64,000 bases of DNA from Mobula hypostoma (Eukaryota): assembly GCF_963921235.1 (NCBI RefSeq), contig NC_086097.1, positions 32,800,001 through 32,864,000 of the forward strand, read 5' to 3'. Numbering within the stretch: the stretch's first letter is position 1; the number at the start of each line of letters is the position of its first letter. The position numbers and the translations under genes were made by a program. Positions 1-56,995 of the stretch are shown piece by piece. The notes under the pieces were generated by a model. It ran no database searches. It was not told where the DNA came from and saw only the letters and a list, made by a program, of their open reading frames with translations.

Positions 1-362
1 AGAACGGCTGCATGCTTCTCCCGAAGGTAACGTGGTCAACCAGCTACAGGGTCTCATCTCGTTTCGGGCCAACAGAATTCCCAGGATCCATGGTAATACC
101 CGCAGAGGAGGTGCATGTATCTCCACTGGTCAGCATAAACCACGGATGTTGCATCCCAGCTTTCAACGTGAAACGCAAGCCAGTGCAGTGCAATATAGAG
201 TGCAAGCTGTTTCCCATGTAGCAAGCGTTTTGCAGGATATGTACAACACTTCTAACTACATCTCTTCCGAAATACTCTCACTGCAACCTGCAGCATGTAA
301 ATCTCCTTTAGGCAATGCACTTTTAAGCTCAATAGCTTTTTGGCACCAAGCAACTGTATGGG

Positions 363-1721
363 TGTTCTCCAGTCTGGATTTTGACAACACCATAGCACTG
401 AGCCTGTTCCGATCAAGGTTTTAAATGACATCCGTTTAAGCCATGATGACGGTAAAATTTCAGTTCTGGTTTTACTGAATCTTAGTGCTGCTTTTGACAC
501 AGTTGACTATGGCATATTACTGCATAGACTGCAAACCTGGGTGGGCCTTTCCAGTATAGTATTAAAGTGGTTTAAATTGTATTCACAGGACAGAGACTAT
601 TTTGTATCAATTGGTAGCTACATATCTGACGGAACAAAAGTGACATACCAGGGCCTTTTCTGTTTAACCTACATGCTCCCTCTAGCTCAAATCATGGTAA
701 GCATCAAAATATCTTACTGTAATTATGCTGATGACACTCAGATTTATGCAACAGCATCATCAAGTGACTGTGGTCTCATACAATCACTGGAAAACCGAAT
801 TGAACAAATCACTGATTGGATGAGGCAAAATTTCCTAAAGTTAAACTAAGAGAAAACTGAAATAATTGTTTTTGGTGCCTGAAAGGAACAGTTACAAGTC
901 AGTGTTTACTTAGAATCTCTGTTGTTACAGACCAAAACCAAGCCAAAAACCTTGGTGTTGTGATGGACTCCGAATTAAATTTTAATTGCCACCGTAAGAC
1001 AATTAGGTACAAAGTCAGCCTACTACCATCTTAGAAATATAGCGAGAGTTAAAGGGCTTATTTCTCAGCAAGATCTAGAAAAGCTTGTCCCTGCATTTAT
1101 TTTTAGTAGGCTTGACTGCTGTAATAGCATTTTCACAGGTCTCTGTAAAAAAAAAAATCCCACAGACAGCTGCAGCTCATACAGAACGCTGCTGCTGGAA
1201 TCCTCACTAAGACCAAGAAAGTAGAGCATATCACCCCAGTTCTCAGATCACTACACTGGCTTGTTGTCCATCAAAGGACTGACTTTAAAATCTTACTACT
1301 GGTTTATAATGATCGAGGGCCAAAATACATCTCCGATACCTTGCTGCATTACGAACCTTCCTGAGCTCTCAGGTCGTCTGGGGCGGATCTGCCTACCGTC
1401 CCCAGGGTCAAAACTAAACATGGTGAAACAGCTTTTAGTTGCCATGCTCCACATATCTGTAATAACCTTCCAGAGGATCTGAAGTCTGCCCCAACTTCAA
1501 ACTTTTTAAAAGTCGAGTCTTAAAACTTTTCTTTTTGCTGTAGCTTATAATTACAATTTCCTGCACTGTAACTTTTATTCCTTTTCTTAATCTATTTATC
1601 ATCTCTTTTTATTCTCTTTTATACTGTCTGAAATTTGATGTTGATTTTTTTTATTTTGTTCTATGTAAAGCACTTTGAACCACCTAGTGTTTGAAAAGTG
1701 CTCTACAAATAAACTTGCCTT
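363..1721 (+). mobile_element. L2-clade LINE, 5'-truncated, decayed RT plus 3' end
   Basis: Translates to LLNLSAAFDTVDYGILLHRL...CNYADDTQIY...WMRQNFLKLN and IQNAAA..LTKTKKVEHITPVLRSLHWL. Ends tgtaaagcactttgaac...aaagtgctctacaaataaacttgcctt, an L2-type tail. Confidence 0.85.
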
Positions 1722-1789
1722 AAAATCAACTTAATTATCTACAGATTTTACAATCTTATGAAGGACTCAGTGGACCAGGCAGGTAGAGC

Positions 1790-3480
1790 ACCTTTAAGTG
1801 GACGAAGGTTCATTGCCATGGCCAGAAGTGGGGAAAGAGGAACTCCAAGCCAGGCTGAAATGAAGAGGGATGAGATCCCCTCTTGTCAGTAAATGTGCAG
1901 TTGTTCTGAGAACAAAATTGAGGACCTGAGGGAATTGCTGTATCAGAGCGAAATGAGAGATTGTTGTGTTCCATGTTTGAATGAGACATGGCTTACTCCT
2001 AGCACGCCAGATACAGTGATCGGACCTGAAGTCACAGAATGGACCGAACTACTGACTCGGAAAAGGCAAAAAGGCATTTCATAATAACTCTTGGTGGTGC
2101 TCCAATGTGGCGATTATGTCAAACTCATGCTGTCTGTTCTATTTACCCAGGGAGTTCTCCTCCTTAATCCCCACCGCAGTTTACATACTGACAGTGGCCA
2201 ACTATAATCAAGCACTTGAGGTACTGCATGATGCCATCTCCAAACAAGGAACAGTTCATCCCAATGCATTTCAAGTCATAGTTCGGGACTTCAACCAGGC
2301 TTGTTTGAAGAAAACCCTGCCCAATTACCATCAGCCTGTAATCTGTAGCACCAGAGGTCCCAACACACTAGACCATTATTATATTAAGATAAGGGAATGC
2401 CTTCCATTCCATGTCCAGGTCATGATGATCCCATAGCATCTTCACTCTTCTCCATCCTGTCCCACCTGAAAAATGCTGCCTCCTAAGCCAAGAAGCTGTT
2501 TATTGACTTCAGCTTGGGATTTAATACGATCATTCCTCAGAAACTGGTGGGCAAACTGTCCTCATTGGGTTTCAACACCTCTCTCTGTAACTGGATCCTG
2601 GACTTCTTGACAGAAAGGCCACAGTCAGTCTGTGTTGGCAGAAACATGTCTAGCTCCATCACGCTGAGCACTGGACCTTCCCAGAGCTGCGTGCTCGGCC
2701 CGCTGCTGACGTGCGACTGGACTGCCAGATCCAGTTCAAACTGGATCATCAAGTCTGCTGCTGACACAACTGTGGCTGGCCCCACCAAGAACGATGTCGA
2801 AACGCATACGGACAGGAGGGAGAGTGGCTGGTAGAATGGTGCAAGCACAACAACTCGAGTCTCAAAATGGACATGATCAAAGAGATGATTGTAGATTTTA
2901 GGAAGGTGCAGGTTGATCACTCCTCGCTGCACATAAATGGCTCCTCCATGGAGAGTTGGGAGTTTCTAGGAATCCACATTACAGTCTCAGCTGGTCTCTC
3001 AACACCACTTCTTTGGTCAAGAAAGCAAAGTGGCATCTCCATTTCCTGAGGAGATTGAAGCAAGTGAGGTGCACCCCCTCTAACTAATTTTACAGGAGCT
3101 GTCCTGACCAGCTGCCTCACCGTCTGGTACGGGAAATGCAAGGCATCCTACCTCACGTCCCCACAAAGGATTCCAAGGACTGCTGAGAAGATCATCGGGG
3201 TCTTTCTTCTACCCAGATGTTAATCAGGAGTGCTGCATACGCAGGATCTTTAGTATTGTCAGGGATCCCTCCCATTCTTCAAACAATCTCTTTGACCCCC
3301 TACCATCAGACAGGAGGTATCGCAGCATTAGGACAAGAACTGTTAGGATAGAAAACAGCTTCTAACTCCAGGCCATAAGACTACTGAACTCCTTGCCACC
3401 ACCAGGGCCTCGTTACACATGAAAAGCCAGTTGCATTATACTGTTTACTTTTAAAGTCATAAATTCACCCTAATTTGTGG
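1790..3480 (+). mobile_element. Rex1/Babar-clade LINE remnant (EN and RT, internally deleted)
   Basis: EN pieces CLNETWL, LPREFS..TAVYI, DFNQACLKKTLPNYHQ..STRGPNTLDHYY. RT pieces [51 protein letters not shown]. Confidence 0.8.
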
Positions 3481-3485
3481 TAATA

Positions 3486-3562
3486 CAGTGCTTTGAAAAG
3501 TATTCAGCCCGCACAACTATTTTCACTTTTTACTGTCTCTAAATTTAAAATGTATTGAAGTA
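3486..3562 (+). mobile_element. Tc1-like terminal inverted repeat, left part (continues at 31379)
   Basis: TA|CAGTGCTTTGAAAAGTATTCAGCCC is a Tc1-type terminus after a TA dinucleotide. It ends in attgaagta, which is duplicated at 31370-31378. Confidence 0.6.
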
Positions 3563-3772
3563 CAAAACATAATAGAGCAACTGGTCCAGACAACATTGCT
3601 GTTGAAATGATAATGACCTCAGAAGATATTGGAATAGAGAAAATAACAGAAATAGCAAATGAAATCTATGATCATGGGGAGACACCTGATGATTTAAGTA
3701 AATCAGTGTTCATCACACTTCCAAAGAAAAGGGAGCAACAGAGCGTGAGTTACGTTGCACAATAAACTTGAT
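3563..3772 (+). mobile_element. RTE-clade LINE, segment 1 of 3
   Basis: ATGPDNIAVEMI..EIANEIYDHGETPDDLSKSVFITLPKK..TINL; the frame continues as MSH.. at 4986. Confidence 0.75.
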
Positions 3773-4985
3773 TAGATTGGATTAGATTAGATTCAACTTT
3801 GTCATTGTGCCGAGTACAGATACAAAGTCAATGAAATGCAATTAGCTTCTAACCAGAAGTGCAAAACAATAGTATTATTTACAAAATAACTGTGAATAAG
3901 AAGTAAGTGCTACAGCACACAAATATAAAAGTACTGAGACCGTACAATATGGATGCAATACTGCTAAGCGCTGTGATGTGAGGTTCAGCAGTGTCATAGC
4001 CCCAGGGAAGAAGCTCTTCCTGAGCCTGCTGGTGCGGGACCGGAGGGTCTTGTAGCGTCTACCGGATGGAAGGAGAGTAAAAAGTCTATGGTTAGGGTGA
4101 GATGCATCCTTGATGCTCCTCAGGAAATAAAGGCGCTGTTGCTTATTGCCGCTGGGGACTTTAATCATTGTAACCTACGTACCGTGCTTCCAAGATTTTA
4201 CCAAAATATATCATGCACCAAAAGGGTATAAAACCTTAGATCATGTCTACACAAATGTGGCTGACGCTTACAAAGCCACTACCCTCCCCCACCTGGGACA
4301 GTCCGACCATCTTTCATTGTTTCTGCTTCCCAAGTATAGCCCGGTCATTAAACGTGTGAAACCCACAATGAAGACTATTAAGTTCTGGCTGGAGGGTGCT
4401 GACTCTGCTCTTCAGCACCAATTCCAGCACACAGACTGGAGTGCGTTTGCTGCCCATGCCACCACAGACTCTCAGATTAACATTGATTTATATACCAACT
4501 CCGTCCTTGAGCACATCAACAAGTGTGTAGATAGAGTGACATCACAAAAACAAATAAAAGTTTTCCCCAATCAGAAACCATGGATGAACAGAGAAGTTCG
4601 CCTCCTGCTCAAAGCCAGAGATTCAGCCTTCAGGTCTGGAGACCGGGAGGCTTACAGCTCAGCCAGGGCCAACCTGAGGAGGGGAATCTCTCAGGCTAAA
4701 CACATATACAACAGAGAATCGAGGAGCATTTCAATTCCTCAGACCCCCAGCGCATGTGGCATGGCACATAGGTCATTACAGACTTCAAACCACCTAGTAC
4801 TGTGCCCCCTTCCAGCTCTGCTTCCCTCCCTGATCAGCTCAATTACTTCTACGCTTGCTTTGACTGAGAGAACAAGGAGGTCACCCTCAAAGCGGATCTC
4901 CCACCTGGTGAACTGCCTCTCTCACTTTCCACCTCCGATGTGCACCACCCTGAGTAGGGTGAATGTACGGAAGGCAGCTGGTCTG
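3773..4985. mobile_element. Rex1/Babar element with inverted 5' block, inserted into RTE
   Basis: 3773-~4150 is the 3' end on the - strand ((aatct)n-type tail; QQRLYFLR..LLPSGRRYKTLRSRTSRLRKSFFP). ~4146-4985 is EN/linker on the + strand (GDFNH..TLDHVYTNV..SDHLSLFLLP..PNQKPWMN..RKAAGLD). Confidence 0.75.
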
Positions 4986-5315
4986 GATGAGCCACGAGGC
5001 AAAAATTATTCTCAGAGTATCATGATGAGAGCAAGACACTATATAAAACCAGAAATCAGTCAAGAACAATGCGGCCTTGTGGAAACACTAAAACCAGAAA
5101 TGCAATTTTCATGCTACAGATGAACTGTGAACGAGCCATCTAGGTACAAAAAGACATCTACCTATGTTTCATCGACTATACGAAAGCTTTTGACACTGTC
5201 AGACACCAAGATCATCTGGAAATGCTTCAAGATCTTGACATAGATGGGAAAAATATACATTTCTTAAGAAACTGATACTGGGACCAGACAGCATCCATCA
5301 GAATAGAAGGATAAA
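4986..5315 (+). mobile_element. RTE-clade LINE, segment 2 of 3
   Basis: IMMRARHYIKPEISQEQCG..TRNAIFML..LCFIDYTKAFDTVRH..YWDQTASIRIEG. Confidence 0.8.
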
Positions 5316-5695
5316 TGTCACAGTCCCGATCATTAATTCCCCATCTTTCTCCTAATTTCTTTTGATCATGCCACGGTTCTGACTGTTAATTTCCCATTTG
5401 CTTCTAATTCTTTTTGATGACAACACACCTGGTTTCCATCAAGACCTGCAGCATAAGAACCCCGGCATTACAACCACTAGTCGCCAGATCGTTGGTTTTG
5501 CCTGTGTGGTAATTAATGTTTCCCGGCAACTTAGGACCGTGTGTTCTAAGTTTTGCTCCAGTTTCAAGGTTTACCTATGAAACTCTGTCTCTCTGTGTCA
5601 AGATCCCTCTTGTTTGCTGTTCAACGTTCACGTCCTAACTCAATCTCCATGCCTATGTTCTGCACTTGGGTTCGCTTCCTTCGCTCATTGCAACA
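5316..5695 (+). repeat. 5' LTR of sushi-type Gypsy element
   Basis: TGTCAC...GCAACA termini. Its 3' half (5534-5695) is repeated at 30501-30683. It is immediately followed by the PBS and gag. Confidence 0.85.
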
Positions 5696-8600
5696 GAATG
5701 ATCTGGCCACAATGGACCCAGCGGACACGAGTACCCTGCAACAAGCCCTCGCCAGCCAGGGCTCCCTAGTGGGTCTGCACGATCAGCTTCTCCGGGATAC
5801 CATGGAGAACCTCCATTCCCCGTCTGCTAATGTAAGGAAGATCGGTGACCAAGTGGACCATATATCCACTCATTTTACCCCATCCACTCCTGGAATTCTG
5901 TCTAACCATCCCAGACAGTCTGCAGTGGCAACCCCCTATGTGTCAGCAACACCCCCGCCAAGACAGCCACACATACCTGAACCAGAACACTACGCTGGGG
6001 ATTTGGGGAAGTGCTGGGCCTTGCTTCTGCGATGCTCCTTGGTGTTTGAACAGCAGTCATCCACGTACACCACGGACAGATCAAAGATAGCTTATATCAT
6101 GGGGTTGTTGCAGGGAAGTGCCTTAGCGTGGGCTACAATTGTCTGGGATAATCAACCGGATATCTGCTCTTCTTTCCCCACCTTTATCGCGGAAGTAAGA
6201 TCTCTGACACCCTGTCCGTGGTAAAGATGCCGCTAAGCATCTACTCACTGTCCGTCAGGGCTCACGCAGTGTTGCCGAATATTCTGTGGAGTTCTGGATG
6301 TTAGCAGCTGACTCGGGGTGGAACGATGAGGCACTCTAACGGGTATTTCAGAATGGTCTCAGCGACATGGTGAAAGACGAGTTGGTGGCAAAAGCTGACA
6401 CCGACAGCCTGGATTCTTTGATCTCCCTAGCCACCAGGTTGGACAATCGTCTTTGAGAATGCCATAGGGAAAGAACTGGTCGTCCACCATCTTTGGCCAC
6501 TCCACAGCACTCTTTACTGTCTCCCACCAGCACAAGCCTCTCTTCTCCCCCTGCTCCTGGAATAGCTCCCAGCACTGCCCTTTCCACCGCCCCGGGAGAG
6601 GAACCCATACAGCTGGGAAGGAGCTGTCTTTCTCCTACAGAGCGACTCCGGAGATTCAGAGCAGGGAATTGTCTCTATTGCGGTCAGTCCGGTCATTTTC
6701 GTGCTACCTGTTCCCTTCGGCCAAAAGGGAGGGCTCACCAGTAGAAAGGGGGACCCTGGTGAGCCAGACAACATTCCCTTCCGTCCCCCGAACCCAGATG
6801 CAGATCCAAGCGGCTTTATGTTTCAACCTACAGTCCCTGCCTCTGTCAGCTCTAGTGGACTCCGGCACTGAGGGAAATCTTTTGGATGGAAACATAGCTT
6901 CCCAGGCCAGAATTCCTCAGGAGCCGTTGAGTACCCCTCTGGAAGCCCGGGCAATGGACAGTAGACTTCTGGCCCGAGTCACACACTGCACACCACCCTG
7001 TCTCTTATTCTCTCTGGGAAACGGTACGATTTAACCTAATTTCCTCTCTTCAAGCTCCTATAGTTCTTGGGTACCCCTGGTTAAACCGCCATAATCCCCA
7101 CATTGACTGGTCCACCGGGAAGATAGTCAGCTGGAGTCTGTTCTGTCACTCCACTTGTCTACAATTGGCCCTTTCCCCTGTGAAAGTCACTGCGACCTCA
7201 TCTGCCGCTGAAACCCCCGACTTATCCAAGGTTCCAGCATAGTATCACGATCTGGGAAAAGTGTTTAGCAAACAACAGGCTCTTTCCCTACCTCCACACC
7301 ACCCTTACGACTGCACAATTGACCTTCGCCCCGGAGCCCCTCTACCCACCAGTCGGCTGTATAACCTGTCCCGGCCATAAAGGGAAGCAATAAAGGGAGG
7401 CTTATCTAAATGACTCTCATGCAGCGGGCATTATTTGATCATCTTCCCCTGTAGGCGCAGGTTTCTTCTTTGTGGGGAAGAGAGACGGCTCACTGCGCCC
7501 CTGCATTGACTACCGTGGCCTGAACAGCATCACCATAAAGAATAAGGATCCACTGCCCCTTATCAACTCTGCTTTCCAACCCCTTCATGGAGCCACCATC
7601 TTCTCTAAGTTGGGCCTACGAAGTACCTACCACCTGGTCAGGATAAGGGAGGGAGATGAGTGGAAAACAGCTTTTAATACCCCTCTTGGTCACTTCGAAT
7701 ACCTGGTCATGCCATTCGGTCTCACCAATGCTCCCGCCGTCTTCCAAGCTCTGATAAACGATGTCCTTAGGGACTTTATTAATCATTTCATTTTTGTTTA
7801 TTTGGACGACATCTTAATCTTCTCCCGCAGTCTTCAGGAACACATCCACCAGGTCCGTCAGGTTCTGCAGAGGCTTTGGGAGAACAAACGATTCGTGAAG
7901 GCAGAGAAGTACGAGTTTCATGTCCCTTCTGTCAGTTTCTTAGGGTAGATCATTGAGAGTGGGCAAATGAGGGTGGATCCTGAAAAGGTCCGGGTGGTGG
8001 TGGAGTGGCCAAAACCCATGACACTCAAGCAACTCCAGCGATTTCTGGGGTTCGCAAACTTTTATCATCGTTTCATCAGGGATTACAGCCGGGTGGCAGC
8101 GCCCCTTACTCGACTCACCTCTCCTACGCCCCCTTTTCACTGGGACCTCAAAGCGGACTTGACCTTCTCACAGCTGAAGAGGACACTCACCTCCGCTCCC
8201 ATCCTGGTCGAATCAGACCCCTCTCGCCAATTCATTGTGGAAGTTGACGCCTCTGACTTTGGGGTGGGAGCGGTCCTCTCCCAATGCTCTGGCCCAGACC
8301 AAAAACTCCATCCCTGCGCCTTCTTTTCTCACTGGCTATCCCCTGCCGAACGGAACTACGACGTAGGGAACCAGGAGTTACTGGCTGTCAAACTTGCTTT
8401 GGAAGAGTGGAGGCACAAGCTGGAGGGAGTGGAATATCCATTCATCGTCTGGACAGATCACAAGAATCTTGCATACATCAAAACCGCCAAATGCCTTAAT
8501 TCCCACCAAGCCTGTTGGGCATTATTTTTTGGTTGTTTTTGATTCACACTCACCTATCGTCCGGGGTCCAAGAACGGGAAGCCCGATGCTCTCTCCCATC

Positions 8601-9608
8601 AATACGTCTTCAAGGAAGGCTTTCCCAACCCCGAGACCATCCTGTGCAGTGGCTGCCCTCACCTGGGAGATCGAATCCATAGTCAAAGAGGCCCATCGGA
8701 CTCAACCCGACCCAGGCAATGGACCCCCCAAATTGCCTCTTCATGCCTGACTCTGTTTGGTCTCAGGTTCTCCAGTGGGGGCAAACTTCTCGTTTTGCCT
8801 GCCAACCTGGAATTGATCGGACTCTGTCCCTTCTGAAGAGACATTTCTGGTGGCCCTCCATACACGCTGACACTCATTCCTTCATCTCTGCCTGTTCTGT
8901 TTGTGCCCGCAGAAAAGCCTCCCATCGACCACCTGCTGGGTTGCTTCGTCCCCTACCTGTCCCGAGTCACCCTTGGTCTCACATTGTGCTGGATTTTGAC
9001 ACTGGACTACCCCCTTCACATGGGAACACTGCCATACTCACCGTGGTGGACCGCAAAGTGTGCATTTCGTAGCTCTTCCCAAACTCCCTACAGCCGACCT
9101 CCTTGTTCATCACGTCTTCCGTCTTTATGGAATTCCCTCTGATATTATTTCTGACCGGGGTCCCCAATTCATCTCTCAAGTCCGGAGATCCTTTTGTCAA
9201 GCCCTTGGAGCCTCAGTAAGCCTGTCTTCCGGCTTCCATCCACAGACAAATGGTCAAATAGAACGAGCAAACCAGGATTTGGAAGCAGCACTGTGCTGCA
9301 TAACCACCAACAACCCGTCATCCTGGAGCACCCATCACGTTTGGGTCGAGTACGCTCACAACTTCCTGGTCAGGACCGCCACCAGAATGTCTCCCTTCGA
9401 ATGCTCCCTCAGTTACCAACCCCCTGTTTACCGCACATGAAGACGACATTGCTGTGCCTTCACTTCAGGCCCATCTCCGCTGGTGCTGCAAGATCTGGAA
9501 GGACGCTCGCACAGCCCTGCTCCACTCAGCCGACCACAACCAAAGGATTGCTGATCGCCATCAAATTCCTGCACCAAATTATTGGCTTGGGCAGAAGGTA
9601 TTGCTTGC
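5696..9608 (+). mobile_element. Ty3/Gypsy retrotransposon of the sushi-ichi/Tf1-sushi group: gag-pro-RT-RNaseH-IN pseudogene
   Basis: gag MDPAD..PEPEHYAGDLGKC..DRSKIAYIMGLL.G.ALAWA and [14 protein letters not shown] (CCHC); protease [27 protein letters not shown]; RNase [41 protein letters not shown]. Multiple stops and frameshifts. Confidence 0.92.
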
Positions 9609-9730
9609 ACCGTTGTAACTATATGTTATAATTATGTGGTTTTGGTCAGTTTTTGTCTGTCTTGTGTTTCAGTGATATCATGTATTACTAAATTACAATA
9701 AAACAGGACTGCATATCCTCAATCTAAATA
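9609..9730 (+). mobile_element. Short non-LTR 3'-end fragment (Rex1-like tail)
   Basis: T-rich UTR ending aataaaacaggactgcatatcctcaatctaaa, a poly(A) signal plus short repeat tail. Family assignment is weak. Confidence 0.35.
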
Positions 9731-31369: not shown

Positions 31370-31378
31370 ATTGAAGTA

Positions 31379-35985: not shown

Positions 35986-35988
35986 CAT

Positions 35989-37613: not shown

Positions 37614-37651
37614 TGTGAGGGTGTGATTGGCTGAGACTACTACAATTTGAT

Positions 37652-41579: not shown

Positions 41580-42665
41580 AAAAGTAGAAGCAATCAAACT
41601 GGGTGAAGGACAACCAAACTAAAAGATGAGGGTGTAGCAAATGTGACAATTTAACCTTTAAATAATCAATTCTAACACCATGGCAAGCGTGAACATAGCA
41701 AGACACAAGGTGGTCATCCTGCATCAGCAGAGTCTCTCCCAAGCAGAAATTTCACAGTAGACAGGAATTTCAAGAAGTACTGTCCAAGAGATTCTGAAGC
41801 AGCACAGAGAAACAGGCAAGGGTGAGGACCAGAAATGCAGTGGTTGACCCATGGAAACTGAGTGCAGCAGGTGAGAGATACATCAAACAGACATCCCTTC
41901 TAAATCAGAAGTCCAGCACTGCATCAGCTCTGAACTCTCAGAAACCACTGGAATGCAAGTGCACGCCTCTACAGTTGGAGTAGTCTTGGCAGACGTGGTC
42001 TTCATGGGAGAATTGGTGCCAAAAAGCCATTCCTCCAAAGTGGAAACAAAGCCAGGTGACTCACATATGCATAAAAAACACAAGGACGAGGGTGCTGAAC
42101 AATGGCAGCAAGTACTCTGGATGGACAAGTCAAAATTTGAAATTTTTGGCTCAAACAGAACGCAGTTTTATCTGTAGAAGAGTTGCAAAACATGACATGG
42201 ATGAGTGTCTGCAGCCAACAGTGAAACACGTTGGAGGTTCCCTGCAGGGTTGGGGCTGCATTTCTGCAAATGGAGTTGGTCTGGTCAGAATTAATGGAAT
42301 CCTCAGTGTGAGAAGTACAAGCAGATTCTCATCCATAATGCAAACTGTCAGGGAGGTGTCTGATCTGTCCCAACTTCATTCTGCCCCATACACGTGGCCA
42401 AGGTCTTAAAAGAACTATCTTCAGCGAAACAAAGAACAAGGAGTTCCGCACCAGATGGTATGGCCTCCCAGAGCCCTGATGTCAACATCGAGGCCATCTG
42501 GGATTACCTGGAGAGAAAGAAGCAAGAGAGACAGCAAAAGTCTGCAAAAAAAAAATTGTGGCGAGTTCTCTAAGGTTCTTGGAACAACCTACCAGCCGAT
42601 TTTCTTAAAACTGCACAACAGTTTTAAAGGCAAATGATGGCCACACCAAATATTGATTTGATTTA
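41580..42665 (+). mobile_element. Tc1 transposase pseudogene
   Basis: HTH (ARHKVVILHQQSLSQAEIS..STVQEILKQHRETG); WQQVLWMDKSKFEIFGS; CLQPTVKHVGGSLQGWGCIS; MVWPP.SPD.NIEAIWDYL. Confidence 0.85.
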
Positions 42666-44010: not shown

Positions 44011-44078
44011 TAGTTGCTTTTTTTTTTAAAACTGTTGACTGCTCTTTATAGTAATTTTTTGATATTTAGTAACTTTAC

Positions 44079-46213: not shown

Positions 46214-47299
46214 ACTGCTCTTTATAGTAATTTTTTGAGATTTAGAAACTTTACATTTCATTTTGGAAAACATCTTTGCTTTACAGAATTTTTTTTATGT
46301 GTATGACATTTGCACAGTACTTTATTCTCATCTCTGACAGTGTGAAACAGAGTCTGAAACTGGCCTCCAAGTACGCCAAGGCTGTTGAGATCTTTATGCC
46401 ATCCTCAGATGGAAGTAGAAGGAGAAGGTTGTGTCTGGGAATGATAGGCGACAGCTTAAAGCTTTTGTGGATGACTTGGTGAGTACATCAGGGGACAGTG
46501 GGACACAAGGTGGCTCTGGTGCCACTTGAACCAAGAGGGAAAAGAGCATTCTCACTTTTTTTTGGGGGGGACTGTAGGGGTAAGAGCAGCTCTGCTCTCA
46601 CTGGGAAGGTACTGGTTCAGAGGCAGAGTGCGCTCCTGACATGAAGTTTACCACTGCAAGCCTTAATATGAATTTCAACTGGACAACAGCCAGCTTCTCA
46701 ACTCAAGCAAGAACAAGAACTTCTCAAAGCATGGTTTTTTACAGAAGGATCCATCAACGAGAGAAACAGCAACGTCAATAATCAACGTATCACAAGCAAT
46801 TTCAGGATCTGGACAGCAAAGCAAACACTTGAAAACTAGCCAATCTTCTACTGCTAAAATGTTCACTGTTTTGTACCAGTCAACCAGATCATGAATCAAT
46901 ATCCATTCGGACCCTGGAGAAGTATGTAAGCCAGCATTCTGAGGAGACAACACCCTCAACTGCGCAATGATGATGGCTTCTCATTTGGAACATCTGCAAG
47001 CATTTTGCCCAATCCGGCCATCAACCAAACTTCCTTCCAGCCTTAACATGCATGCCAGCAGGGGTTCTCTCCGCAGCTTTAATGATTTATCAGTCCTTAG
47101 GAATGGGAGATATGTGGCAAGTTTTTAGCAGGAAACCCCTATCATCCTGGGAGAGGAGTCCACTTGGCTCCTGCAGCGGCAGGGAGAGACCTACATGAGC
47201 CATCTTATTTCCATTTAGAATGGGGTGCACTTGCACTCAAAAGGGGGTGCTGTTGTAGTGTGGTGGACTGACCCCCTACCTCGGTAAGGCTGGGCGGCA

Positions 47300-48115
47300 A
47301 TTCTCAGACACTGCCTCTTACTTACCCCTTGTAAAGGACCCCACTCAGGACCATTGTCTCCCGCACCATCACCAACCTCATCAGCTCTGGAGAGCTCCTT
47401 GCCTCCTAAGTTCTCTTACCCTGCACTGCTCATTTCTACCTCCTACCTAAGATCCACAAACCTGGCTGTTTGGGTGCATTCACTGTTTCTGCCAGCACCT
47501 GCCCCACATTGTGTCTGCATACAACGACTCAATTTTATCCCCCTTCATCAGTCCCTTCCCACCTACATCTGTGACACTACACATGCTCTCAATTTCCTCA
47601 ACAACTTGCAATTTCCTGGCTCTGATCAGCCTACTTTCACCATGAATGTCCAATCCCCCATCAAAGGTGGCCTTAAAAGTTCTGTTTTTTTTTGGAAAAT
47701 AAACTCTACCACTTTTCCCCACCCCCACTACTCTCCTCAGTCTGAAGAATTAGTCCCCTCACCCTTAGTTTCTCTTTCGACTCCTCCCACTTTCTCCAAA
47801 CTCAAGTTGTAGTCATGGGTATCTGCATAGGCTTTGGTTATGCCTGCCTTTTCACTGGCTATGTGGAACAGTCCATGTTCAAAGCATTCCCAGGTAACGC
47901 TCCCCAATCCTTTCCGCGCTACATTGATTACTGCATTAGTGCTGCTTCATATACCTATGCTGAGCTGGTCAATTTCATCATCTTTGCCTGCAACTCCACC
48001 CTACCTTTAAATTCATTCGGTCCATTTCTGACACCTCTCTCTCCTTTCTCAATTTCTCCGTCCATCTCTGCAGGGAGACTGTCCACTGATATCTTTCATC
48101 AGTCTACTGACTCTT
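47300..48115 (+). mobile_element. Penelope-like RT fragment
   Basis: FYLLPKIHKP; LPTYICDTTHAL; FTMNVQS; MGICIGFGYACLFTGYVEQ..RYIDY; LSTDIF. Confidence 0.8.
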
Positions 48116-50315
48116 ACAGAATGAGTGAAGGCAGCAAGAGGTCCAGCACTATGCTGACACCAATTGTTCTTTAGTGTATTAAGGCAATCTGCAGACCACA
48201 TACACCAAGAGTCATGCCTCTCCTGTCATCAGACTGCACAACCTTGCTCATGGAGAAGAGGAGCATCAACACCAGGAAGAGGGAACACTTCATCAGCTTG
48301 CTCAACAAGCCATCTACTGTAGGCTAGATACTGCAGAAAATACCCTTGAACTTCTCTGTTGGAAGAAGTCAAGAAAGCCATTGCTCAAAAATCCCCTGGG
48401 CAGGGCAGAATCCCCACTGAGATCTTCAAGTCAGCAAGTCCAGTTGCAAATTAAACTTTCCACAGCTCTTGCATGCATCTGGGAAGTAGCAGTCATGCCT
48501 AAAGACTTCCAGGATGCCACAATCATCCTGCTCTTCAAAAATGAAGGAAGCAAAAGCTGACTCCGGTAACTACCAAGGAAACTCCTTCTTGACCATTGCC
48601 AGAGGTTCAGGTCCATATTTCTCATCTGTCTAATCACTAACATATCAGAAGAGAACCTCCTGAGACACTGTGGTTTTCACTTGGGACACTGTTCGCCAGG
48701 TTTAGGGAAAGTGCACAAAACAAAATTTGAACCTGTATGTTATTTTCATAGATCTAACCAAAGCATTCGATACAGTCAACAGAGAAATTCTGTGGTCTAT
48801 ATTATCAGAGCTGGGACGGCCCCAGATTTATCAATCTCATTCATCACTTTCATAACGTGACTGGCCTCGTCCTTTCAAACAGAAGCATCAGAGCCAGTCA
48901 ACATTTTCAAACAATGTGAAACAGGGGTGTCTGATAACCGCTGTACGTTTTAACCTATGCGTGTGCTGAACCGTGCCGTCAGAAACACTAACCAGGGAGT
49001 GTATCTGAAGTATGGATCACTCTGACCTGCATCGTCTGAATGCCAAGTCAAAGACAATCGAGCTTGTCCTCAGAGCTTTATACTGATGACTGTGCCCTAA
49101 TGGCACTCTCCCCCCCCCCACCCACAGAGTCTGATCTCCAATTTATTGTTAATAACTTTGCAGAAGCCCCTCATCTCTTTGGCCTTAGCATCATCCTAGT
49201 AATGACAGAAGTCCTATTTCACTCTGCTCCTTGATCTGCTGTTGCCTGTCCTTCCACCACCACTGAGTGAACAAAATTGATGTGGGTGGTCAGAGCTACA
49301 ACGGCGTTTAACAGCGACTTCTTCGAGCTCATCTGTGGAAACAGTTTAATCTTTACCTTTGATGTCTCTTTTTCCTTTTCAGGGTAGGTACGGCTCTGTT
49401 GAAAACCCTGACATGGAGTTACACTCGGACTTCGGTTCTTTGTGTTGGTGGAACCCCCTCACGGGGACTCACCCCAGCTGCTTTTCAAAATCCCAAGGAC
49501 GTGGCCTCAAAGATGAATGTGCCTTCGGGTACCAAGGCCTCACGACTCTAGACAAGCTGATTCCATGCCGGTACTGCCAACTGAAACGTTGAGGGAGAAA
49601 CTGGAACCGCAGGTGCAGCAGATCAGCTGTCGGAGGCTCTACTTGGCGAATCGCTTGTGCTCTTCTCTCTCTGTGTGGAGGAACTTATTGCCGATTCGAG
49701 TTGGAGAACTTGGGGGAGAAAAGCGATGCAACAGAATTTATCACCACACACCAGCTAGTTGTTTTGTTATGTCTCCCCTCTCACTCTGAACCCATTTCCC
49801 TTTATCAGGAAGAGCAAGCCTGCGGCATGTTGAATTGTCGGATGAATGATTAGTTTTTGTTGTACCACAGATTATGGTCATTCTTGGGGGCTTTGCTATT
49901 GCTTGGTGGGTGGAGGGTGCTAATGGTTTATTTGTGGGTGGGGGTGGGAGAGGGTCGTTGCTTTGCTGCTTGTGCATGGGAGGGGGAGTAGGGAGGTTTG
50001 GGACTAATATTTTTACTGTCGCTCATTCTTTGGGACAGCCTTCTGTTTCGTGGCTGTGAAGAACAAGAATTCAGGATATCTCTGATATTAAATGGAACTA
50101 TTGAATATGGTAAACGAGTTCAAGGACCCCAGCAGCAATGTCTCTGGTGATAGCTCCCTGGACAGGGAAATCAATGCCAGGATTTGGAAAGCCAGTCACG
50201 CATGTTGAACCAGCATAAAACACTCCACTATCCACAAAAGTGAAAATGTACACCATTGTCATTGTTAGCTGTCTCCTTTATGGCTGTGAAATATGGACTG
50301 TTCACAGAAGAAAAC
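48116..50315 (+). mobile_element. RTE (BovB-like) LINE remnant, interrupted at 49281-50099
   Basis: [56 protein letters not shown]. Confidence 0.75.
49281..50099 (+). mobile_element. Non-coding, probably non-autonomous retroelement, copy 2
   Basis: Homologous to 37652-38390; flanked by attga (49276-49280 / 50100-50104); the RTE frame continues across it. Confidence 0.55.
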
Positions 50316-50644
50316 TCATGTTTTGGAATGGCCAAGTCAGAGTCCAAACCTTAATCCAATTGAGAGGCTGTGGCATGACCTGAAGAGGTCTGTTCATGCA
50401 AAGCATCCCAGAAATATTGATGCACTGTAATAGCCTTGTATGGAGGAATGGTCTGAAATTTCCCTTTGCTGTTCTGCAAGTCTGATCAGCAGATATAGGA
50501 AACGTTTGGGGGAGGTTACTGCTGCTAAAGGAAGTTCAATCAGTTATTAAATACAAGGTTTCACCTATGTTTTCCAGCCTGGACTGAATGATTAAACAAT
50601 GTGTTCAATAAAGACATGAGAAGTACAATTGTTTGCGTTTGTTT

Positions 50645-51228
50645 GCAAGTCACCAACAGTGAGGTCCTGGCCCACACTCAGATACCCAGCTTCTTCACCC
50701 TGCTGCAACAATGCTGTCTCCGCTGGCCGGGCCACGCACACCGCATGTCAGACAGGAGGATCCCGAAAGACCTTCTGTACAGGGAACTGGCCTCCAGCAA
50801 GAGAGACATGAAGTCACTTAATATGAACGTTGAGAGGTGGGAGGACATCCCAAGCAATCGCTCTCGCTGGAGGCTAGAACTACACAGAGGTCTAAAAAGA
50901 GAAGAGAAGCTGAAGCTTCATACATCAAAGTTGCTGGTGAACGCAGCAGGCCAAGCAGCATCTATAGGAAGAGGCGCAGTCGACGTTTCAGGCCGAGACC
51001 CTTTGTCAGGACTGGGCTGAAGCTTGCTGCTGAAGAAAAGCACACTCGCTGAGAAAACAGCACCAAGACAACACTGGAGGACAGCGCCTTCAAGTGCAGT
51101 CGCTGCAGCCGAGACTGTCACTCCCATGTGGGCCTCTACAGCCACAACAGATGCTGCTCTAGCACAGACTGAAGCAAGACTTTCCAGGCGCAGATTCATG
51201 GTCTTGTGAGACTAACGGATGCCACCAG
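50645..51228 (+). mobile_element. 5'-truncated RTE (BovB-like) 3' end
   Basis: VTNSEVLAHTQIPS..LRWPGHAHRMSDRRIPKDLLY; C-terminal FKCSRCSRDCHSHVGLYSH. Confidence 0.8.
50919..51015 (-). mobile_element. 97-bp Penelope pLTR mini-insertion consisting of a hammerhead motif plus tail
   Basis: - strand reads ccagtc-ctgacaa-agggtctcggcct-gaaacgtc-gactg...gatgctgcttggcctgctgcgttcaccagcaactttgatgtatg; 10-bp TSD gctgaagctt at 50909-50918 / 51016-51025. Confidence 0.8.
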
Positions 51229-51399
51229 TAGTTTAGGCAGATTGTGTTTGTCTATCATTGTGACTTAGATGAAGATCAGACCACATTTTATGAGTAATTA
51301 ATGCAGAAAACGAGGTAACTGCGAAGGGTTCACAAACTGTTTGCATCTGAGATGGAAAACTTTCACTGCTGCCCTAAATGCTAGTGACTAACGGGCAGT

Positions 51400-53033
51400 A
51401 AGTTATACCAGAGACACGAGGTGCATGTGGCAGGGAACCATGACATCTCATTCCCCGACAGGCTGAATGGCTTTTACGCCCATTTTGATGCTGGTGAGGA
51501 TGGCATCCCTCCCCACAGGGGAGCAGACACTTTGTCTGGCTGAAGCTGATGTCAAGACGATCCTGGCCAGGGTCAACCCACACAAAGCTGTGGGGCCTGA
51601 TAATTTCCAGGTCGGGTTCTGACAAACCGTGTAGCCCAGCTGAGGAGCTGACAGATATATTCAACATCTCTCTAGAACAATCCATTGTCCTCTTGGTTTT
51701 CAAGGCAGCAACCATCATCCTAGTGCCAAAGGTGGCACCTCCTGCCTAAATGACCATTGGTCCTGCGCCATTAACATCAACCATTATGAAATGCTTTGAG
51801 TCATGGAGCACATTAAAGCCTTTCTCCCTGCTACATTGGACCTTTTCCAGTTTGCTTGTCACTTAAATTGATCCACTGACAATACCATAAACTCTGCCTT
51901 CCACTCTGTTTTGACCCACCTGGAAAATGGGTCTCACGTGCCAGGTTGCTGTTTATAGACTTCATCATACCCCAGAAACTGGTGGGGAAACAGTCTTTGC
52001 TGAGTCTCAACTCCTCCCCCTGTAATTGGATCCTGTGTTTCTTAACAGAAAGTCCACAGTCAGTCTGTGTGGGCAGCAACGTCTCTCGTCCCATTACGTC
52101 GAGGCACCGGTGCTCTCCAGGGCTGTGTGCTCAGTCCGCTGCTGCTTACACATGGCTGCGTCACATGATTCAGCTGAAACTGTGCCATCAAGTTTGCGAA
52201 TGACGCAAGTGATCGGTCTCATCAACAATGGTGAGGCGGAGTACAGAGAGGAAGTGGAGTAGCTGGTGTGAGAACGACAACCCAAGGCTGTACGTGGAGA
52301 CGACCAAGAAAATGACTGTGGACTTTCGGAAGGTGCAGATGAACCATCCCCCATGTATACATGGTGTCTCCATAGAGAGAGTTAAGTACACCAAGTTCCT
52401 GGGAGGTCACACCATGGTTAATTTCACCTTCCTGAATAAGGCGGTGCAGGAGACTGAGGCAAGCAAGACTTCCCCCACACTCACCCCATCTTAGCTGAAC
52501 TGAGAGCACCACTGAGAGCATCCAGACGAGCTGCATCTCCATCTGGTGGGACAGTAGTCGAGCATCAGACCAGAAGTCCCTACAAAGGACTATGAGAATG
52601 TCTGAGAGGATCACAGGAGTCTCCCTACCATACATCAGGGACATCTATGAGCGCTGCATACACAGGGCCTTGAAGGATCCCACCCATCCATCCAGCATCC
52701 TCCGAAATTCTACCACCAGGCAGGAGACTCCAATGCATAAAGACAGGAACGGTCAGGATGGGAAACAACTTCTTCCCTCAAGCCATTAGGCTTCTAAACT
52801 TCTTGCCACATCGCATTCAAAGTGCCACTAGATAATTTGTACTGTACCCTACAACATTTAATTTATTCACTGTTTATCTATGCATAATTAATTTGTAAAT
52901 TTAGTTTTCCTTTCCTAAGTTATGGTGTGTTATGTCTACTACTGTGCTTTACACCTTGGTCCAGAGAAACATCGTCTCCTTTGGCGGTATACATCTGTAT
53001 AGTTAAATGACAATAAGCTTGACTTGATTTGAC
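51400..53033 (+). mobile_element. Rex1/Babar LINE (RT to 3' tail), same family as 1790-3480
   Basis: [63 protein letters not shown]; tail aataagcttgacttgatttgact. Confidence 0.82.
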
Positions 53034-53034
53034 T

Positions 53035-54600
53035 GTACACTTCTGTCCCCCATCAAGGCCTCAAACCTTGTCACTCTCCCACCCCCAAATAAAAAAAAAC
53101 AACCAGTTCCCCTCCACCACCACCCTCCGCCATCTGGCAGACCTGGTCTTCACCATCAATAATTTTTCCCTCAGCACCTTCTACTTTCTCCAGTCTTGAG
53201 GGGTTGCCTTGGGCACCAGAATGGTCCCCAGTTATGTCTGCCTCTTTGATGGCTACGTAGAACAGTCCATGTTCCAAGTCTTCCCCAGTAATGCTCCCCA
53301 GTTCTTCCTCCGCTGCACTGCTTCGTGCACCCATGCTGAGCTTGTCAATTTCATCAATTTTGCTTCTAACTTGCACCCTGCCCTTAAATTTACTTTGGCC
53401 ATTTCTGGCACCTCCCTCCTCGTTTTCATCTCTGGAGACAAACTATCAGCTGACATCTTTATAAACCTACTGATTCCCATGGCTATCTTGACTATACTTC
53501 ATACCACCCAATCTCCTGTAAAAATCCCCTTTTCTCAGACCCTTCGGCTCTGCTGCATCTGTTCCTTGGATACAGCTTTCCTTTCCAGGACATCAAAGAT
53601 GTCCTCTTTCTTTGAGGAATAGGGTTTCTCTTCCTCCAATATCGATGCTGCTTTCACCTGCATCTTCTCCATTTCCTGTATGCCCGCGCACACCTCATCT
53701 TCTTGCTGCCGTAACAGTGACAGAGTTTCTCTTCTCCTTACCTACCCATCCTGCCTGGTGGTCCTTAACCATCAGCTTCCACATCCAACATATCATCCAC
53801 TGCAACTGTTGCCACCTCCAAAGGGATCCAACCACTAAACAACTTTATCTCCTTAGTTATGATTTCTGCAGGCTCCCTCCTTGATTCCCTTGTCCATTTG
53901 CCCCTCCTGGTACTTATCCCTGCAAGTGGCCTAAATGTCACACCTGCTCACTTACCTCCATTCAGGGCCCCGAACATTCCTTCCAAGTGAGGCCACACTT
54001 CATCTGTGAATATGCTGAGGTCATTGATGAGACCTGTTCTAAATTGAGAGACCGCTCCATTGAACGCCTCTGCTCCATCTGCCAAAAGTGGAACTTCCCA
54101 GCAGACAAACCGTTTAATAGAATTCCCATTCCGACAGGTCGGTTGATGGCCTCCTCTTGTGCCAAGATGAGGCCACCCCCAGGGTGGAGTAGCAACATCT
54201 TATACTCTCTCTGGGTAGCTCGAATCTGATAATACAAATATCGATTTCTCCTTCCAGTAAAAAAAAACACATCTCCCTCTCTCATTCTCCACTCTGACCT
54301 CTAACCCCTCTTCCTCACCTGCCTATCATCTTCCCTGCATCCCCTCCTCCTTCCCTCTCTCCTTTGGTCCACTCTCCTCTCCCATCAGATTCCTTCTCCA
54401 GCCCTTTATCTTTCCATCCAACCTGGCTTCACCCATCGCATTCTGTCTATCCTCCTACCCCTCTCCCCACCTTTTTATTCGGTGTTTTCCTCCTTTCTTT
54501 TTGGTCCTGAAGAATGGTCTCGGCACGAAACGTCGACTGTTTATTCATTTCCACGGATGCTGCCTCAGCCGTTGAGTTCCTCCAGCATCTCGTGTGTGTT
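53035..54600 (+). mobile_element. Penelope-like element (RT to pLTR)
   Basis: GVALGTRMVPSYVCLFDGYVEQ..FASNLHPALKFT; CT-rich spacer; pLTR with hammerhead motif and gatgctgcct..gagttcctccagcat tail. Confidence 0.82.
54503..54538 (+). ncRNA. Minimal type I hammerhead ribozyme motif in Penelope pLTR
   Basis: ggtc-CTGAAGA-atggtctcggcac-GAAAC-GTC-gact: conserved core boxes, stem I ggtc/gact, palindromic ACGT in place of stem III. Stem II is imperfect. Confidence 0.65.
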
Positions 54601-54835
54601 ACCTCACCATTTTTCTCTTTTTGAACTACTGATTTAATTTCATTCTTTTATACTCACATTTTTTATTGTAATTTAGTATTTTTTAAATTAAGTATTGCAC
54701 TGTATTACTGCGGCAAAACAAACAAATTTCATGACCCATGCCCAAGCTCATAACCGTGATTCTGATGAAGTGGCTTATTATTCCTCTCTATAGATGCTGC
54801 TTGACCTGAAGAGATCTTCCAGCATTTTGTGTGTT
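54600..54835 (+). mobile_element. Short LINE 3' tail and a further Penelope pLTR scrap
   Basis: ctgcggcaaaacaaacaaatttcatgac..gattctga (also at 57850-57908); tagatgctgcttgacctg..ccagcattttgtgtgtt. Confidence 0.5.
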
Positions 54836-54839
54836 ACCC

Positions 54840-56370
54840 TGAGAGGTAACTTCTGTACACAGTGGGTAGAGAGTACCGAGAATGAGCTGTCACAGGAAGT
54901 GGCCCAGGTGGATACAAGCACTGCATTTAAGAGGTGGATAGGTACATGCAGGGAAGGGGCTTGCAGTTGCCAAATGCAAGCAGCTGGGACTGGCAGGGAG
55001 GATATTGTGGTCAGCATGAACCAGATGGGCCAAAGGGCCTGTGTACACGTTGTACAACTCTACGATTCCCCCCCCCGCCCCAAAGAGGAAAGGTAATGGG
55101 ACAAAAGGAACGGTGAGCATTACCAGCAAATCTCTTGCACGTCAGTAAGCTGACCAACCTTTAGCCACACTTGGGAAGGGAGCTGCAGTAGGGGAACACG
55201 AGGAGGAACATCTTCACTTTAATGGGCAGTAACAGTGTGGAACAAGCTGCCAACAGAAGTCGTGGATGCAGGTTTGATGTCAACGTTTAAGGGAAGTTTG
55301 GATGTTTCGGGTATGAAGGGCTATGGTCTGCATGCAGGTCGATGGGACCAAACAGATTAATAGTTGAACATGGACAAGATGGGCCGAAGGGCCTGTTTCT
55401 GTGCTGCAGAGCTCTATGACTAATTACAGAATATCGAATGAAAGGGGGCTCTATTTCCCTTTAAACTGTACTCATCCCTGGAGACAAGGACAAATCTTTA
55501 CACAGATCCTCTGACATATTGGGAAACTTAATCCTTCCAGATTCCCTGGTTGCCTTACTTAGTGCATGACAACAAGAAACAAACTAATTTAGACCATAAG
55601 ACACAAGAGCAGAATTACGCCCAGAGTCTGCTCCACCATTTCATCAAGGATGATTTATTTTCCCTCCCAACCCCATTCTCCCTGTAACCTTTGATGCTCT
55701 CACTAAATCAGCGAACTATCAACATCTGCTTTAAATATACCCAAATTAAATATAAATTTCTCAAAAGAAATGCAGCGCAGTTTCTCAAGTTAAATTGGGA
55801 TTGGGAATAAAGATGTCTTCTGAAATATTGCCTGTAATATGGACAGTCATGGGAGTAAGATTGCAGGCAGTGAGGTCACCTCATTGTGCAAGTACTGGTA
55901 CCTGTCCACCCATGACAGGCTCGGCGGGGCAATGCGAATTTCAGGCATCCGTCTTGTTTCAATGCTGATTTAAACACAGGAATAATGTGTTGTACACAAA
56001 CATAGTTTGTGTGGGCACCCACCAGTGGCTATAGTTCAAACGTCCCCCTGCAAACCAGGGGACATAACTTTGAAGTGATTGGAGCATGTATAGGTGGAAA
56101 ATGTCAGAGGTAGGTGTTTCTTTTTAAAAAAAGAGGGAGTGATGGGTGCATGGAACCCACTCCCGTGGGTTGTGGTAGAGGCAGATACATTAGGGACATT
56201 TAAGAAACTCTTAGATAGGCACATGGATCATAGATAAATGGAGGGCCGTGTGGTAGTAGAGGGCAAGGTCAACCTTAAAGGGTAAGGTCATTAAAGGGTC
56301 TTTACATTAAAAGGTCAGCACAACACTGTGGGCCAAAGGCCCTGTACTGTGCTGCAGTGTTTTATGTAAG
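54840..56370. mobile_element. Cluster of CR1 3'-end fragments (+ at 54840-55045, 55190-55420, 56060-56370; - at 55590-55745)
   Basis: Recurrent gtggtagaggcagatac..catttaag..gataggcacatggat..gggccgaagggcctgt..tgtgctg motif. Confidence 0.7.
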
Positions 56371-56925
56371 CTTCCTGCATTGATTCTCTAATGGATTTTC
56401 CACTGAACATTACAGCTGGATATTGACTTCAACCAAACCTTCACTGGACAGTGATCACTGAAATCAAACCTTAATTGTAATCATAGCATACCGACAATGC
56501 CCCAATTCCAATCAGCTAAAGCAGTGTACGAGTTCGGGACCTTCCTAGCCTGTGTAAGACTCAGCATTCCCTGGACCTGCTGGAGAGGCTACAATATCAG
56601 CACTGGCCAAGTGAGGATCTCAAATGCTCTCACAGAAATGGGATGACTTCCAACAAAAATTGTCATCCCATGACTCACACCCTTACTGAAGAGTTTCCAT
56701 CACACTGACTGTCCTTTGACTGTACAGCATTTCTCTGAAAGTTAGAAAATAAAATAAAAATCTAAAAAAGTTACAATTGATGCAATACTGTTAAATGCTA
56801 ATATGAAATACTGTACGGCATCCTTTGCTCATGTCCACTGAAGTTCCGTGCACACAAGGTGCCTTCCACGAGATGGTGGAAATCACTGCAGAGTCCGGCC
56901 ACACCGGTTTCCCACAGCAGGGCGC

Positions 56926-56995
56926 TCACACACGAATCTGATAACCCACATCATTGAGGTTCTTCTGTTCTGTGGACTTTTTCTCTCCTGAAGAC
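56926..56995 (-). CDS. Putative terminal coding exon of an unidentified host gene: (R)SSGEKKSTEQKNLNDVGYQIRV*
   Basis: Strong acceptor tttttttttctctctgtttatAG|G; non-repetitive sequence; phase 2 matches the upstream exon; TGA at 56928-56926, followed by unique AT-rich UTR-like sequence. Confidence 0.7.

Follow-up and report, generated by a model that had tools for sequence, protein, structure and literature searches.

Directly behind a vasohibin-1-like (VASH1-like) gene on the − strand of Mobula hypostoma lies a strand-biased zone, 55-75 kb long, of dense transposon fragments that are predominantly antisense to the gene. Most of it falls in the window, the whole 64,000-nucleotide stretch analyzed here (C1:32,800,001-32,864,000, from a 3.48-Gb genome in 200 contigs); we number positions within the window and give those to its left as negative. 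On the strength of this analysis, the best reading of the block, tentatively held, is that it is a candidate PIWI-interacting RNA (piRNA) cluster downstream of gene (piC-DoG) at VASH1. VASH1 read-through may thus feed a unistrand piRNA cluster of 55-75 kb in a non-mammalian vertebrate, a proposal that we put forward with less than even confidence.

Under this reading, remnants of many transposon lineages, unrelated to one another and nearly always antisense to VASH1, would have filled the intergenic space. RNA polymerase II would, in some cell types, pass the VASH1 polyadenylation (polyA) site near 54.5 kb without stopping and continue leftwards through the block; the resulting long transcript, antisense to the transposons, could be processed into piRNAs. 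The bias would persist if antisense insertions were kept or sense ones lost. The RNA of the block would accordingly be on the − strand, continuous with VASH1, span the whole block and yield piRNAs.

How piRNA clusters originate is an open question. In the piC-DoG model, in the part of its description that we consulted, read-through behind ordinary genes captures antisense insertions and is fixed as a defence locus. If the reading holds here, the downstream-of-gene route to piRNA clusters would be an old vertebrate mechanism and not mammal-specific, with a conserved housekeeping-type gene as host and many unrelated lineages of different ages as content. It would preserve traces of past invasions by several lineages, namely L1, other long interspersed nuclear elements (LINEs), Penelope-like, Gypsy and Tc1 elements, and would offer a defined locus whose promoter, polyA site and block are already mapped. 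If the block yields no piRNAs, what is left is a clean case of a read-through zone between genes with 90% of its elements in one orientation, needing another explanation.

Orientation of the transposon remnants

We ran a Pfam search on all 250 stop-to-stop open reading frames (ORFs) of at least 70 aa in the window and scored as transposon-type the domains RVT_1, RT_RNaseH, Integrase_H2C2, rve, Transposase_22, Exo_endo_phos, zf-RVT, RVT_3, ALKBH8_N, DUF4939, DUF6451 and DUF7041; seven weak matches with non-transposon names, all on the + strand, were left out of the count. This identified 25 transposon-domain ORFs, 23 on the + strand (385-45118) and two on the − strand (ALKBH8_N, 3878-4174; RVT_1, 37016-37510). 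The original prediction, made from the letters of the window, had placed the fragments almost all on the + strand and had listed a Rex1 3′ part and an inverted Gypsy reverse transcriptase (RT) among the exceptions; these exceptions are the two − strand ORFs, and the general statement is borne out by the domain ORFs, by the repeat pairs and by the mixed orientation of the flanks. Grouping the tool calls into elements yields 13 on the + and 2 on the − strand (two-sided binomial p = 0.007). With the pieces named by motif or local blastp added, the ratio is ~26+:2− (p = 3e-6), and it is 20+:2− (p = 1.2e-4) if the L1 pieces are then collapsed. Element names that lack a Pfam or PDB match are assigned by motif or local blastp throughout.

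A blastn comparison of the window with itself gives the same picture from DNA. All 19 non-tandem repeat pairs inside 1-57 kb (19/19) are co-oriented, and they include 5 non-L1 families (p = 0.03). Inverted pairs are solely those involving 57-59 kb, plus one 116-bp palindrome. Local blastp compared ORFs across 264 kb, the window plus its flanks. The further + strand ORFs without a Pfam name were either recognized by motif or share 27-56% identity with flank ORFs that have a Pfam transposon name, and the unexplained − strand ORFs of at least 90 aa in the block have no paralogue within the 264 kb, so there is no sign of overlooked − strand elements. The bias is common to many lineages (Gypsy-type, L1, other LINE RTs and Tc1) and not just to target-primed LINEs.

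The strand-bias controls were the local flanks, 100 kb on each side of the window (200 kb). ORFs of at least 100 aa in 1-57000 number 70 on the + and 21 on the − strand (z = 5.1). In sliding 57-kb windows wholly outside the block |z| is at most ~1.5; in windows overlapping the block z climbs gradually to 4.2, and the maximum falls exactly on 1-57 kb. Comparison by Pfam, with ORFs of at least 100 aa and an identical pipeline for block and flanks, gave transposon ORFs at 19+:1− in the block, 12+:7− in the left flank (−60 to 0 kb, 103 ORFs) and 1+:6− in the right flank (64-124 kb, 97 ORFs), the last with four Vasohibin exons in addition. Between −18 and 0 kb every transposon match is on the + strand, and the closest − strand match lies at −30 to −27 kb; the biased zone may therefore measure ~75 kb and start left of the window.

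Such a pattern could also arise by chance together with insertion mechanics, target-primed LINEs landing in earlier LINE tails in the same orientation, to which a local replication-direction bias may add. The run contigs described below would then be unrelated, being transposon-driven + strand transcripts, read-through from a GSKIP-like gene or DNA carry-over. We consider this explanation unlikely, though it accounts for a good deal. The signal is strongest in the head-to-tail L1 array (10-30 kb), and long ORFs are in excess only within 4-36 kb (42:4). Once the L1 array is reduced to a single event, the tool calls fall to 9+:2− (p = 0.065), and the window was selected as extreme, its bias being measured against the local flanks only; both points weigh equally against a piRNA cluster. 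The bias also extends over −18 to 0 kb, beyond the contig-covered stretch, and the contigs over the block carry no strand. On the other side, non-LINE elements (Gypsy-type, a gag-like ORF and Tc1) are co-oriented with the LINEs, and each of the five non-L1 families has two co-oriented copies. The L1 pieces are mutually only 67-72% alike in DNA and are thus separate old insertions, not duplications; clear polyA tails are mostly not visible at the L1 junctions. The bias, moreover, stops where the gene starts.

The VASH1-like gene and run contigs past its likely polyA site

Seven sequencing runs were found; the RNA library type of all of them is a guess, and the tissue is not stated in the coded samples. 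We compared contigs of four coded runs from one study (X1-X4), which carry no strand, with 44001-64000 of the window. Runs X5-X7 (organism B) had word shares of 0.05-0.09 and were left out of the contig comparison.

Contigs skipping 56994-60463 occur in 4/4 runs, with the splice joint at 56993/60464. The skipped stretch of 3470 nt ends in CT..AC and, with the cut moved by +2, becomes a GT..AG intron on the − strand; spliced RNA is therefore present in the runs, and the exon starting at 56995 is genuine. The loose end of the skipping contig falls in L019, just right of the window. The last exon of the VASH1-like gene (54527-56995, − strand; contigs cover 54527-56993) contains 23 codons, the first split across the intron, a stop at ~56926-56928 and then a 3′ untranslated region (UTR) of ~2.4 kb. 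It is preceded in the transcript by the last intron (56996-60465, −, GT..AG) and by the penultimate exon (60466-60581, −), whose frame connects the exon before it (N-2) to the last exon. Exon N-2 ends at 64180 with a GC donor, contains a Vasohibin domain (Pfam, E = 1.9e-40) and matches VASH1 (3.8e-47) better than VASH2 (5.3e-33) in the PDB. Three further Vasohibin exons on the − strand reach ~94.8 kb, and the four − strand ORFs cover Pfam Vasohibin positions 1-48, 45-77, 94-130 and 120-245. By its sequence, the host gene is vasohibin-1-like, nearer VASH1 than VASH2. At 64001-64180 (−), the end of exon N-2 and the start of the intron are repeated about three times in tandem in ~69-bp units, which sit just downstream of the used donor, GC and not GT.

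Three AATAAA signals on the − strand (54662-54667, 54540-54545 and 54474-54479) mark the likely main polyA site. Since contigs of X1 and X2 end at 54527 and 54535, in keeping with these signals, we place the site near 54.5 kb, which gives the likely length of the 3′ UTR as ~2.4 kb. The original prediction had the block begin just beyond a putative last exon; that exon stands, confirmed at 56995 by the splice joint, while the right 2.4 kb of the supposed block turn out to be 3′ UTR of the gene itself.

Contigs of X1 and X2 continue past the likely polyA site (44040-54527, no strand). Those of X1 with 0 differing letters cover 44040-45046, 46172-50345 (4174 nt) and 52717-53351; X2 pieces cover 53576-54096 (0 differing letters), 49340-50346 (3), 46929-47463 (0) and 46130-46919 (4). 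Because the 4174-nt contig crosses junctions of different transposon pieces, it derives from this locus and not from other copies. Depth is present in all 30 bins in both runs, and the sampled-word shares for 47001-57000 are 0.92 (X1) and 0.78 (X2). From the likely polyA site the cover extends for 10.5 kb or more, as far as 44.0 kb, where the compared stretch ends, and takes in about one quarter of the block. X3 and X4 have only thin cover on the downstream side of 54.5 kb (word shares 0.35 and 0.20), and absent cover there counts as no finding. Contig depth in X1 is ~131-167 on the 3′ UTR, ~44-52 on 44-53 kb and ~11.5 in intron bins, with a similar ratio in X2; we do not count it as evidence, as contig depth is unfit for ranking parts of a gene. 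Nor do differences of one letter (for example A>G at 45869 in X1) reveal the strand. The contig data point the same way as the read-through idea without proving it. Of the read-through-fed cluster in the original prediction, the host gene, its position, the antisense bias and contigs at least 10.5 kb past the likely polyA site in runs with spliced VASH1 thus find support; the − strand origin of this RNA, its continuity with VASH1, its reach into 1-44 kb, its presence in gonads and its piRNA product stay conjectural.

Summed contig depth is ~10,000 at 50671-51337 and 1,300-6,200 at 62677-64000 in all four runs, far above the surroundings. These two places are probably young, abundant, expressed repeat families (a LINE 3′ end or a short interspersed nuclear element).

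The contigs bear on two further explanations. The block could be intronic, belonging either to an extended VASH1 isoform or to a different − strand gene that has exons left of the block. An antisense excess of LINE and long terminal repeat (LTR) elements occurs in transcribed regions and is typical of introns, and the splice joints displayed are 15 of 38, which leaves this explanation some room. The exon at 56995 nevertheless has a stop codon, ~2.4 kb of covered 3′ UTR and polyA signals; none of the 15 of 38 joints displayed runs leftward from it, and there is no gene-type Pfam match on the − strand between −60 and 0 kb. We regard an intronic block as very improbable.

Ordinary read-through, an alternative VASH1 3′ end that extends over a long distance or a − strand non-coding RNA missing from annotation, each with no piRNA role, is a possible explanation that we nonetheless doubt. 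The antisense bias would then come about, as in introns, through loss of sense insertions, since these bring polyA and splice signals that interfere with the transcript, or it would have no function. The contigs running past the polyA signals in X1 and X2 fit it, as does the general antisense excess in transcribed regions, and a ratio of 20:2 is only moderately beyond an expectation of 70% antisense (one-sided p = 0.02). Yet the introns of VASH1 itself (57-94 kb) have no clear antisense excess: their 1 Pfam transposon match is on the + strand, and they presumably also hold several − strand CR1-type tails and an RTE-type piece. Nothing recognizable lies downstream to be protected, with no gene-like ORF in −20 to 0 kb. 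Ordinary downstream-of-gene regions in mouse, moreover, have similar sense and antisense transposon content according to the consulted portion of PMC11615739.

Comparison with known piRNA clusters

In mouse, human and hamster, piC-DoGs are made from transcripts that read through a polyA site, and the top mammalian examples are dense stretches of transposon fragments, tens of kb long, with an antisense bias and a position downstream of a gene; pre-pachytene examples include mouse Zim2 piC-1/3 and human TMEM181 and KANTR (PMC11615739, in the sections consulted). As in these sections, the block at VASH1 abuts or overlaps the last exon of a protein-coding gene, holds tens of kb of dense antisense fragments and has RNA-run contigs past the polyA signal, while the splicing and coding sequence of the host are kept. 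The present case differs from what those sections describe in being known from sequence and strandless contigs, in belonging to a non-mammalian vertebrate, as its mobile-element repertoire also suggests, and in its host, VASH1 not being among the published hosts there. If the reading is true, the locus is a piC-DoG member outside mammals with a host gene that is not a published one.

We rank the piRNA-precursor reading first because the anatomy matches this published kind and ordinary downstream regions are without bias. Stress-type DoG transcripts and long 3′ UTR isoforms resemble the locus in RNA that extends 5 to >50 kb past the annotated polyA site; DoG regions in mouse, again in the consulted part of PMC11615739, have no transposon strand bias, whereas here it is ~90%. 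A literature search, judged by title, returned nothing on a VASH1 piRNA cluster, and no such locus was among the matches listed, likewise judged by title, for shark and elasmobranch piRNA clusters.

The flamenco cluster is transcribed from a promoter of its own, contains mainly endogenous retroviruses of the Gypsy family and works in the somatic cells of the ovary. Together with flam-like Drosophila clusters it shares with the VASH1 block many nested fragments on one strand over tens of kb, antisense to a single transcription direction (PMC10643416, in part). Unlike in flamenco, the proposed driver here is the upstream gene, and LINEs are dominant. Core piRNA clusters of mosquitoes are alike in that read-through is proposed as precursor source and captured elements are antisense; they differ in their enrichment for endogenous viral elements and in expression in both soma and germline (bioRxiv 10.1101/2022.08.22.504762, likewise consulted in part).

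Besides the L1-collapsed count and the choice of an extreme window, several observations weigh against a VASH1 piRNA cluster. Among the contigs listed, none spans the 54.26-54.53 kb repeat to connect the 3′ UTR with the part beyond it. Introns are also covered by contigs, so DNA or nascent-RNA carry-over is possible, and the contigs over the block come without strand from samples of unstated tissue in runs whose RNA nature is guessed. AATAAA signals in the block number 37 on the − and 28 on the + strand at 10-30 kb, and 9 and 10, respectively, at 30-54.4 kb. Depletion of − strand AATAAA in the block was not seen, and these many signals give no sign of adaptation to long read-through. The L1-type coding strand (13100-23448, +) is T-rich (T 0.35-0.40, A 0.25-0.32), in contrast to mammalian L1, whose sense strand we take to be A-rich; transcribed from the − strand, the L1 pieces would give an RNA rich in A and full of AATAAA. 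Lastly, to our knowledge piC-DoGs are documented in mammals only.

Elements of the block and neighboring sequence

Elements are described from left to right and lie on the + strand unless stated otherwise. The block opens with a LINE 3′ part (1-1500; RVT_1 385-846, E = 1.2e-6), presumably L2-like, with an 81% co-oriented DNA match to 42668-43086. It is followed by a LINE endonuclease/RT remnant (2056-3362; weak RVT_1 2487-2831, E = 0.0086), which we take to be Rex1/CR1-like and which has 31-40% blastp identity to flank ORFs bearing RVT_1 and ALKBH8_N. The first exception in orientation is a LINE C-terminal remnant on the − strand (3878-4174; ALKBH8_N, E = 2.3e-4). A 330-aa ORF without Pfam match (4131-5120) corresponds to a LINE N-terminal part, with 35% blastp identity to the upstream part of a − strand LINE in the flanks (L022). 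The interior of a Gypsy-type LTR element with gag, RT, RNase H and integrase (5550-9630) is identified by Pfam through DUF4939, RVT_1 (6.9e-31), RT_RNaseH (1.1e-31), Integrase_H2C2 (9.2e-13) and rve; self-blastn of the window found no LTR pair for it.

The AT-rich array at 10033-30205 consists of ~7 L1-type pieces, all head-to-tail, with Transposase_22, Exo_endo_phos and many RVT_1 matches: A (10.0-11.4 kb), B (11.4-16.4 kb, full length), C (16.6-21.65 kb, full length), D (21.66-23.55 kb), E (23.7-24.25 kb), F (25.1-27.5 kb) and G (27.86-30.2 kb). Within it, 21880-23448 matches human L1 ORF2p residues 719-1216 in a PDB search (E = 7e-40). The array has a GC content of 0.30-0.36, a range that holds over 10-31 kb, and the rest of the window has 0.41-0.55.

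A gag-like fragment, an RT fragment and an RTE-like RT C-terminus follow at 30517-32148 (RVT_1 30784-31017; DUF6451 31813-32148, E = 1.3e-13); the gag-like part (30517-30780) is 71% identical in aa to the gag ORF at 5550-6221 (blastp). The 116-bp palindrome, 95% perfect, lies at 31786-31901 beside the RTE-like C-terminus. Three short ORFs in 32706-36013, assigned by motif only, are taken to be a non-LTR RT C-terminus (32706-33038), a GIY-YIG nuclease (33676-33972) and a LINE endonuclease (35720-36013); they have no Pfam match and no local paralogue in the 264 kb. The gag-like ORF of an LTR element (36132-36956; DUF7041, E = 6.8e-21) is followed by the second exception, an LTR-type RT on the − strand (37016-37510; RVT_1, E = 4.4e-20) with 43% aa identity to the Gypsy RT at 7439-7945. 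An ORF at 38903-39319, presumably a retroelement protease, has no Pfam match and resembles, by blastp, ORFs of L018 (55%) and L010 (32%). An RNase H remnant (40714-40941; RVT_3, E = 3e-4) precedes a Tc1/mariner transposase remnant (41875-42406), whose ORF 41984-42406 matches Sleeping Beauty transposase (5cr4, E = 1.7e-5) and, by blastp, DDE_3 ORFs in L017 and L013.

A second L2-like C-terminal piece (42657-43193) is 76% (aa) and 81% (DNA) identical to 1068-1500 and co-oriented with it. The neighboring 43281-43760 has long ORFs on both strands, is GC-rich and internally repetitive, and is probably a minisatellite. A LINE 3′ part with a restriction-like-endonuclease tail (44077-46220; zf-RVT 44894-45118, E = 1.4e-6), which we assume to be Hero-like, has genomic copies at 80-91% identity, and its 45748-46128 is 47% identical (aa) to 57031-57462. 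Its restriction-like-endonuclease-like ORF had 0 PDB matches and a best Atlas score of 0.84 with no family. A presumably Penelope-like RT remnant at 47288-48171 was named by motif and from Atlas neighbors at 0.92-0.94. Among the five listed clusters, three have RVT_1 and/or HTH_animal on 11-27% of members, which serves as a lead only, and the other two have no common family. This remnant is 56% identical (aa) to 53200-53619, co-oriented.

A LINE running from RT N-terminus to C-terminus (48183-51017), which we take to be CR1-like, has co-oriented DNA matches to 37646-38342, and its 50592-51017 has 10 local protein paralogues (blastp). The original prediction had recognized no CR1 in the block, a statement at odds with the pieces at 48.2-51.0, 54.8 and 56.1 kb that we take to be CR1-like. 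A second Rex1/CR1-like RT remnant (51880-52786) is co-oriented with 2487-2955 (70% DNA, 66% aa) and has 39-41% aa identity to ALKBH8_N ORFs of L014. The second Penelope-like remnant (53200-54226) is identified by blastp to ORFs in L027, L010 and L020 and to 47746-48171; its ORF had 0 PDB matches. Rfam and tRNA scans of the window gave no match.

On the left, the next recognizable genes are a GSKIP-domain exon on the + strand (at about −67 kb, L012:3006-3338) and the first coding exon of an ATG2/VPS13-type N-terminus on the − strand (at about −86 kb, L010:3833-4114), so that the block is not inside a recognizable gene. The two exons are head to head, ~19 kb apart, at 67-86 kb left of the window; we believe the ATG2-like/GSKIP pairing to exist also in human, where VASH1 is not their neighbor. 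In the left flank 3/94 unique long ORFs had matches: the ATG2/VPS13 N-terminus, GSKIP and an SB-type helix-turn-helix. A second GSKIP exon was found in 0/97 unique + strand ORFs of 45-99 aa in L012-L015, and because no second exon matched, the 3′ end of the GSKIP-like gene is not placed. The block is intergenic space between convergent genes, GSKIP-like (+) on the left and VASH1-like (−) on the right.

Within the last VASH1 intron, 57049-57384 (+) is a 335-bp repeat with a restriction-like-endonuclease-type ORF and >10,000 first-look genomic candidates, of which 40 scored copies are 90-92% identical. Its appearance suggests a short and highly abundant sequence derived from a LINE tail.

A random 60 kb from the same genome (G000:C21:18264001-18324000; L029-L034) proved to be an uninterrupted G-rich satellite with a 14/28-bp unit and a 489-bp higher-order period. 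Its ORFs of at least 100 aa number 106+:0−, so it is of no use as a control for transposons and illustrates how misleading ORF counts can be when taken by themselves.

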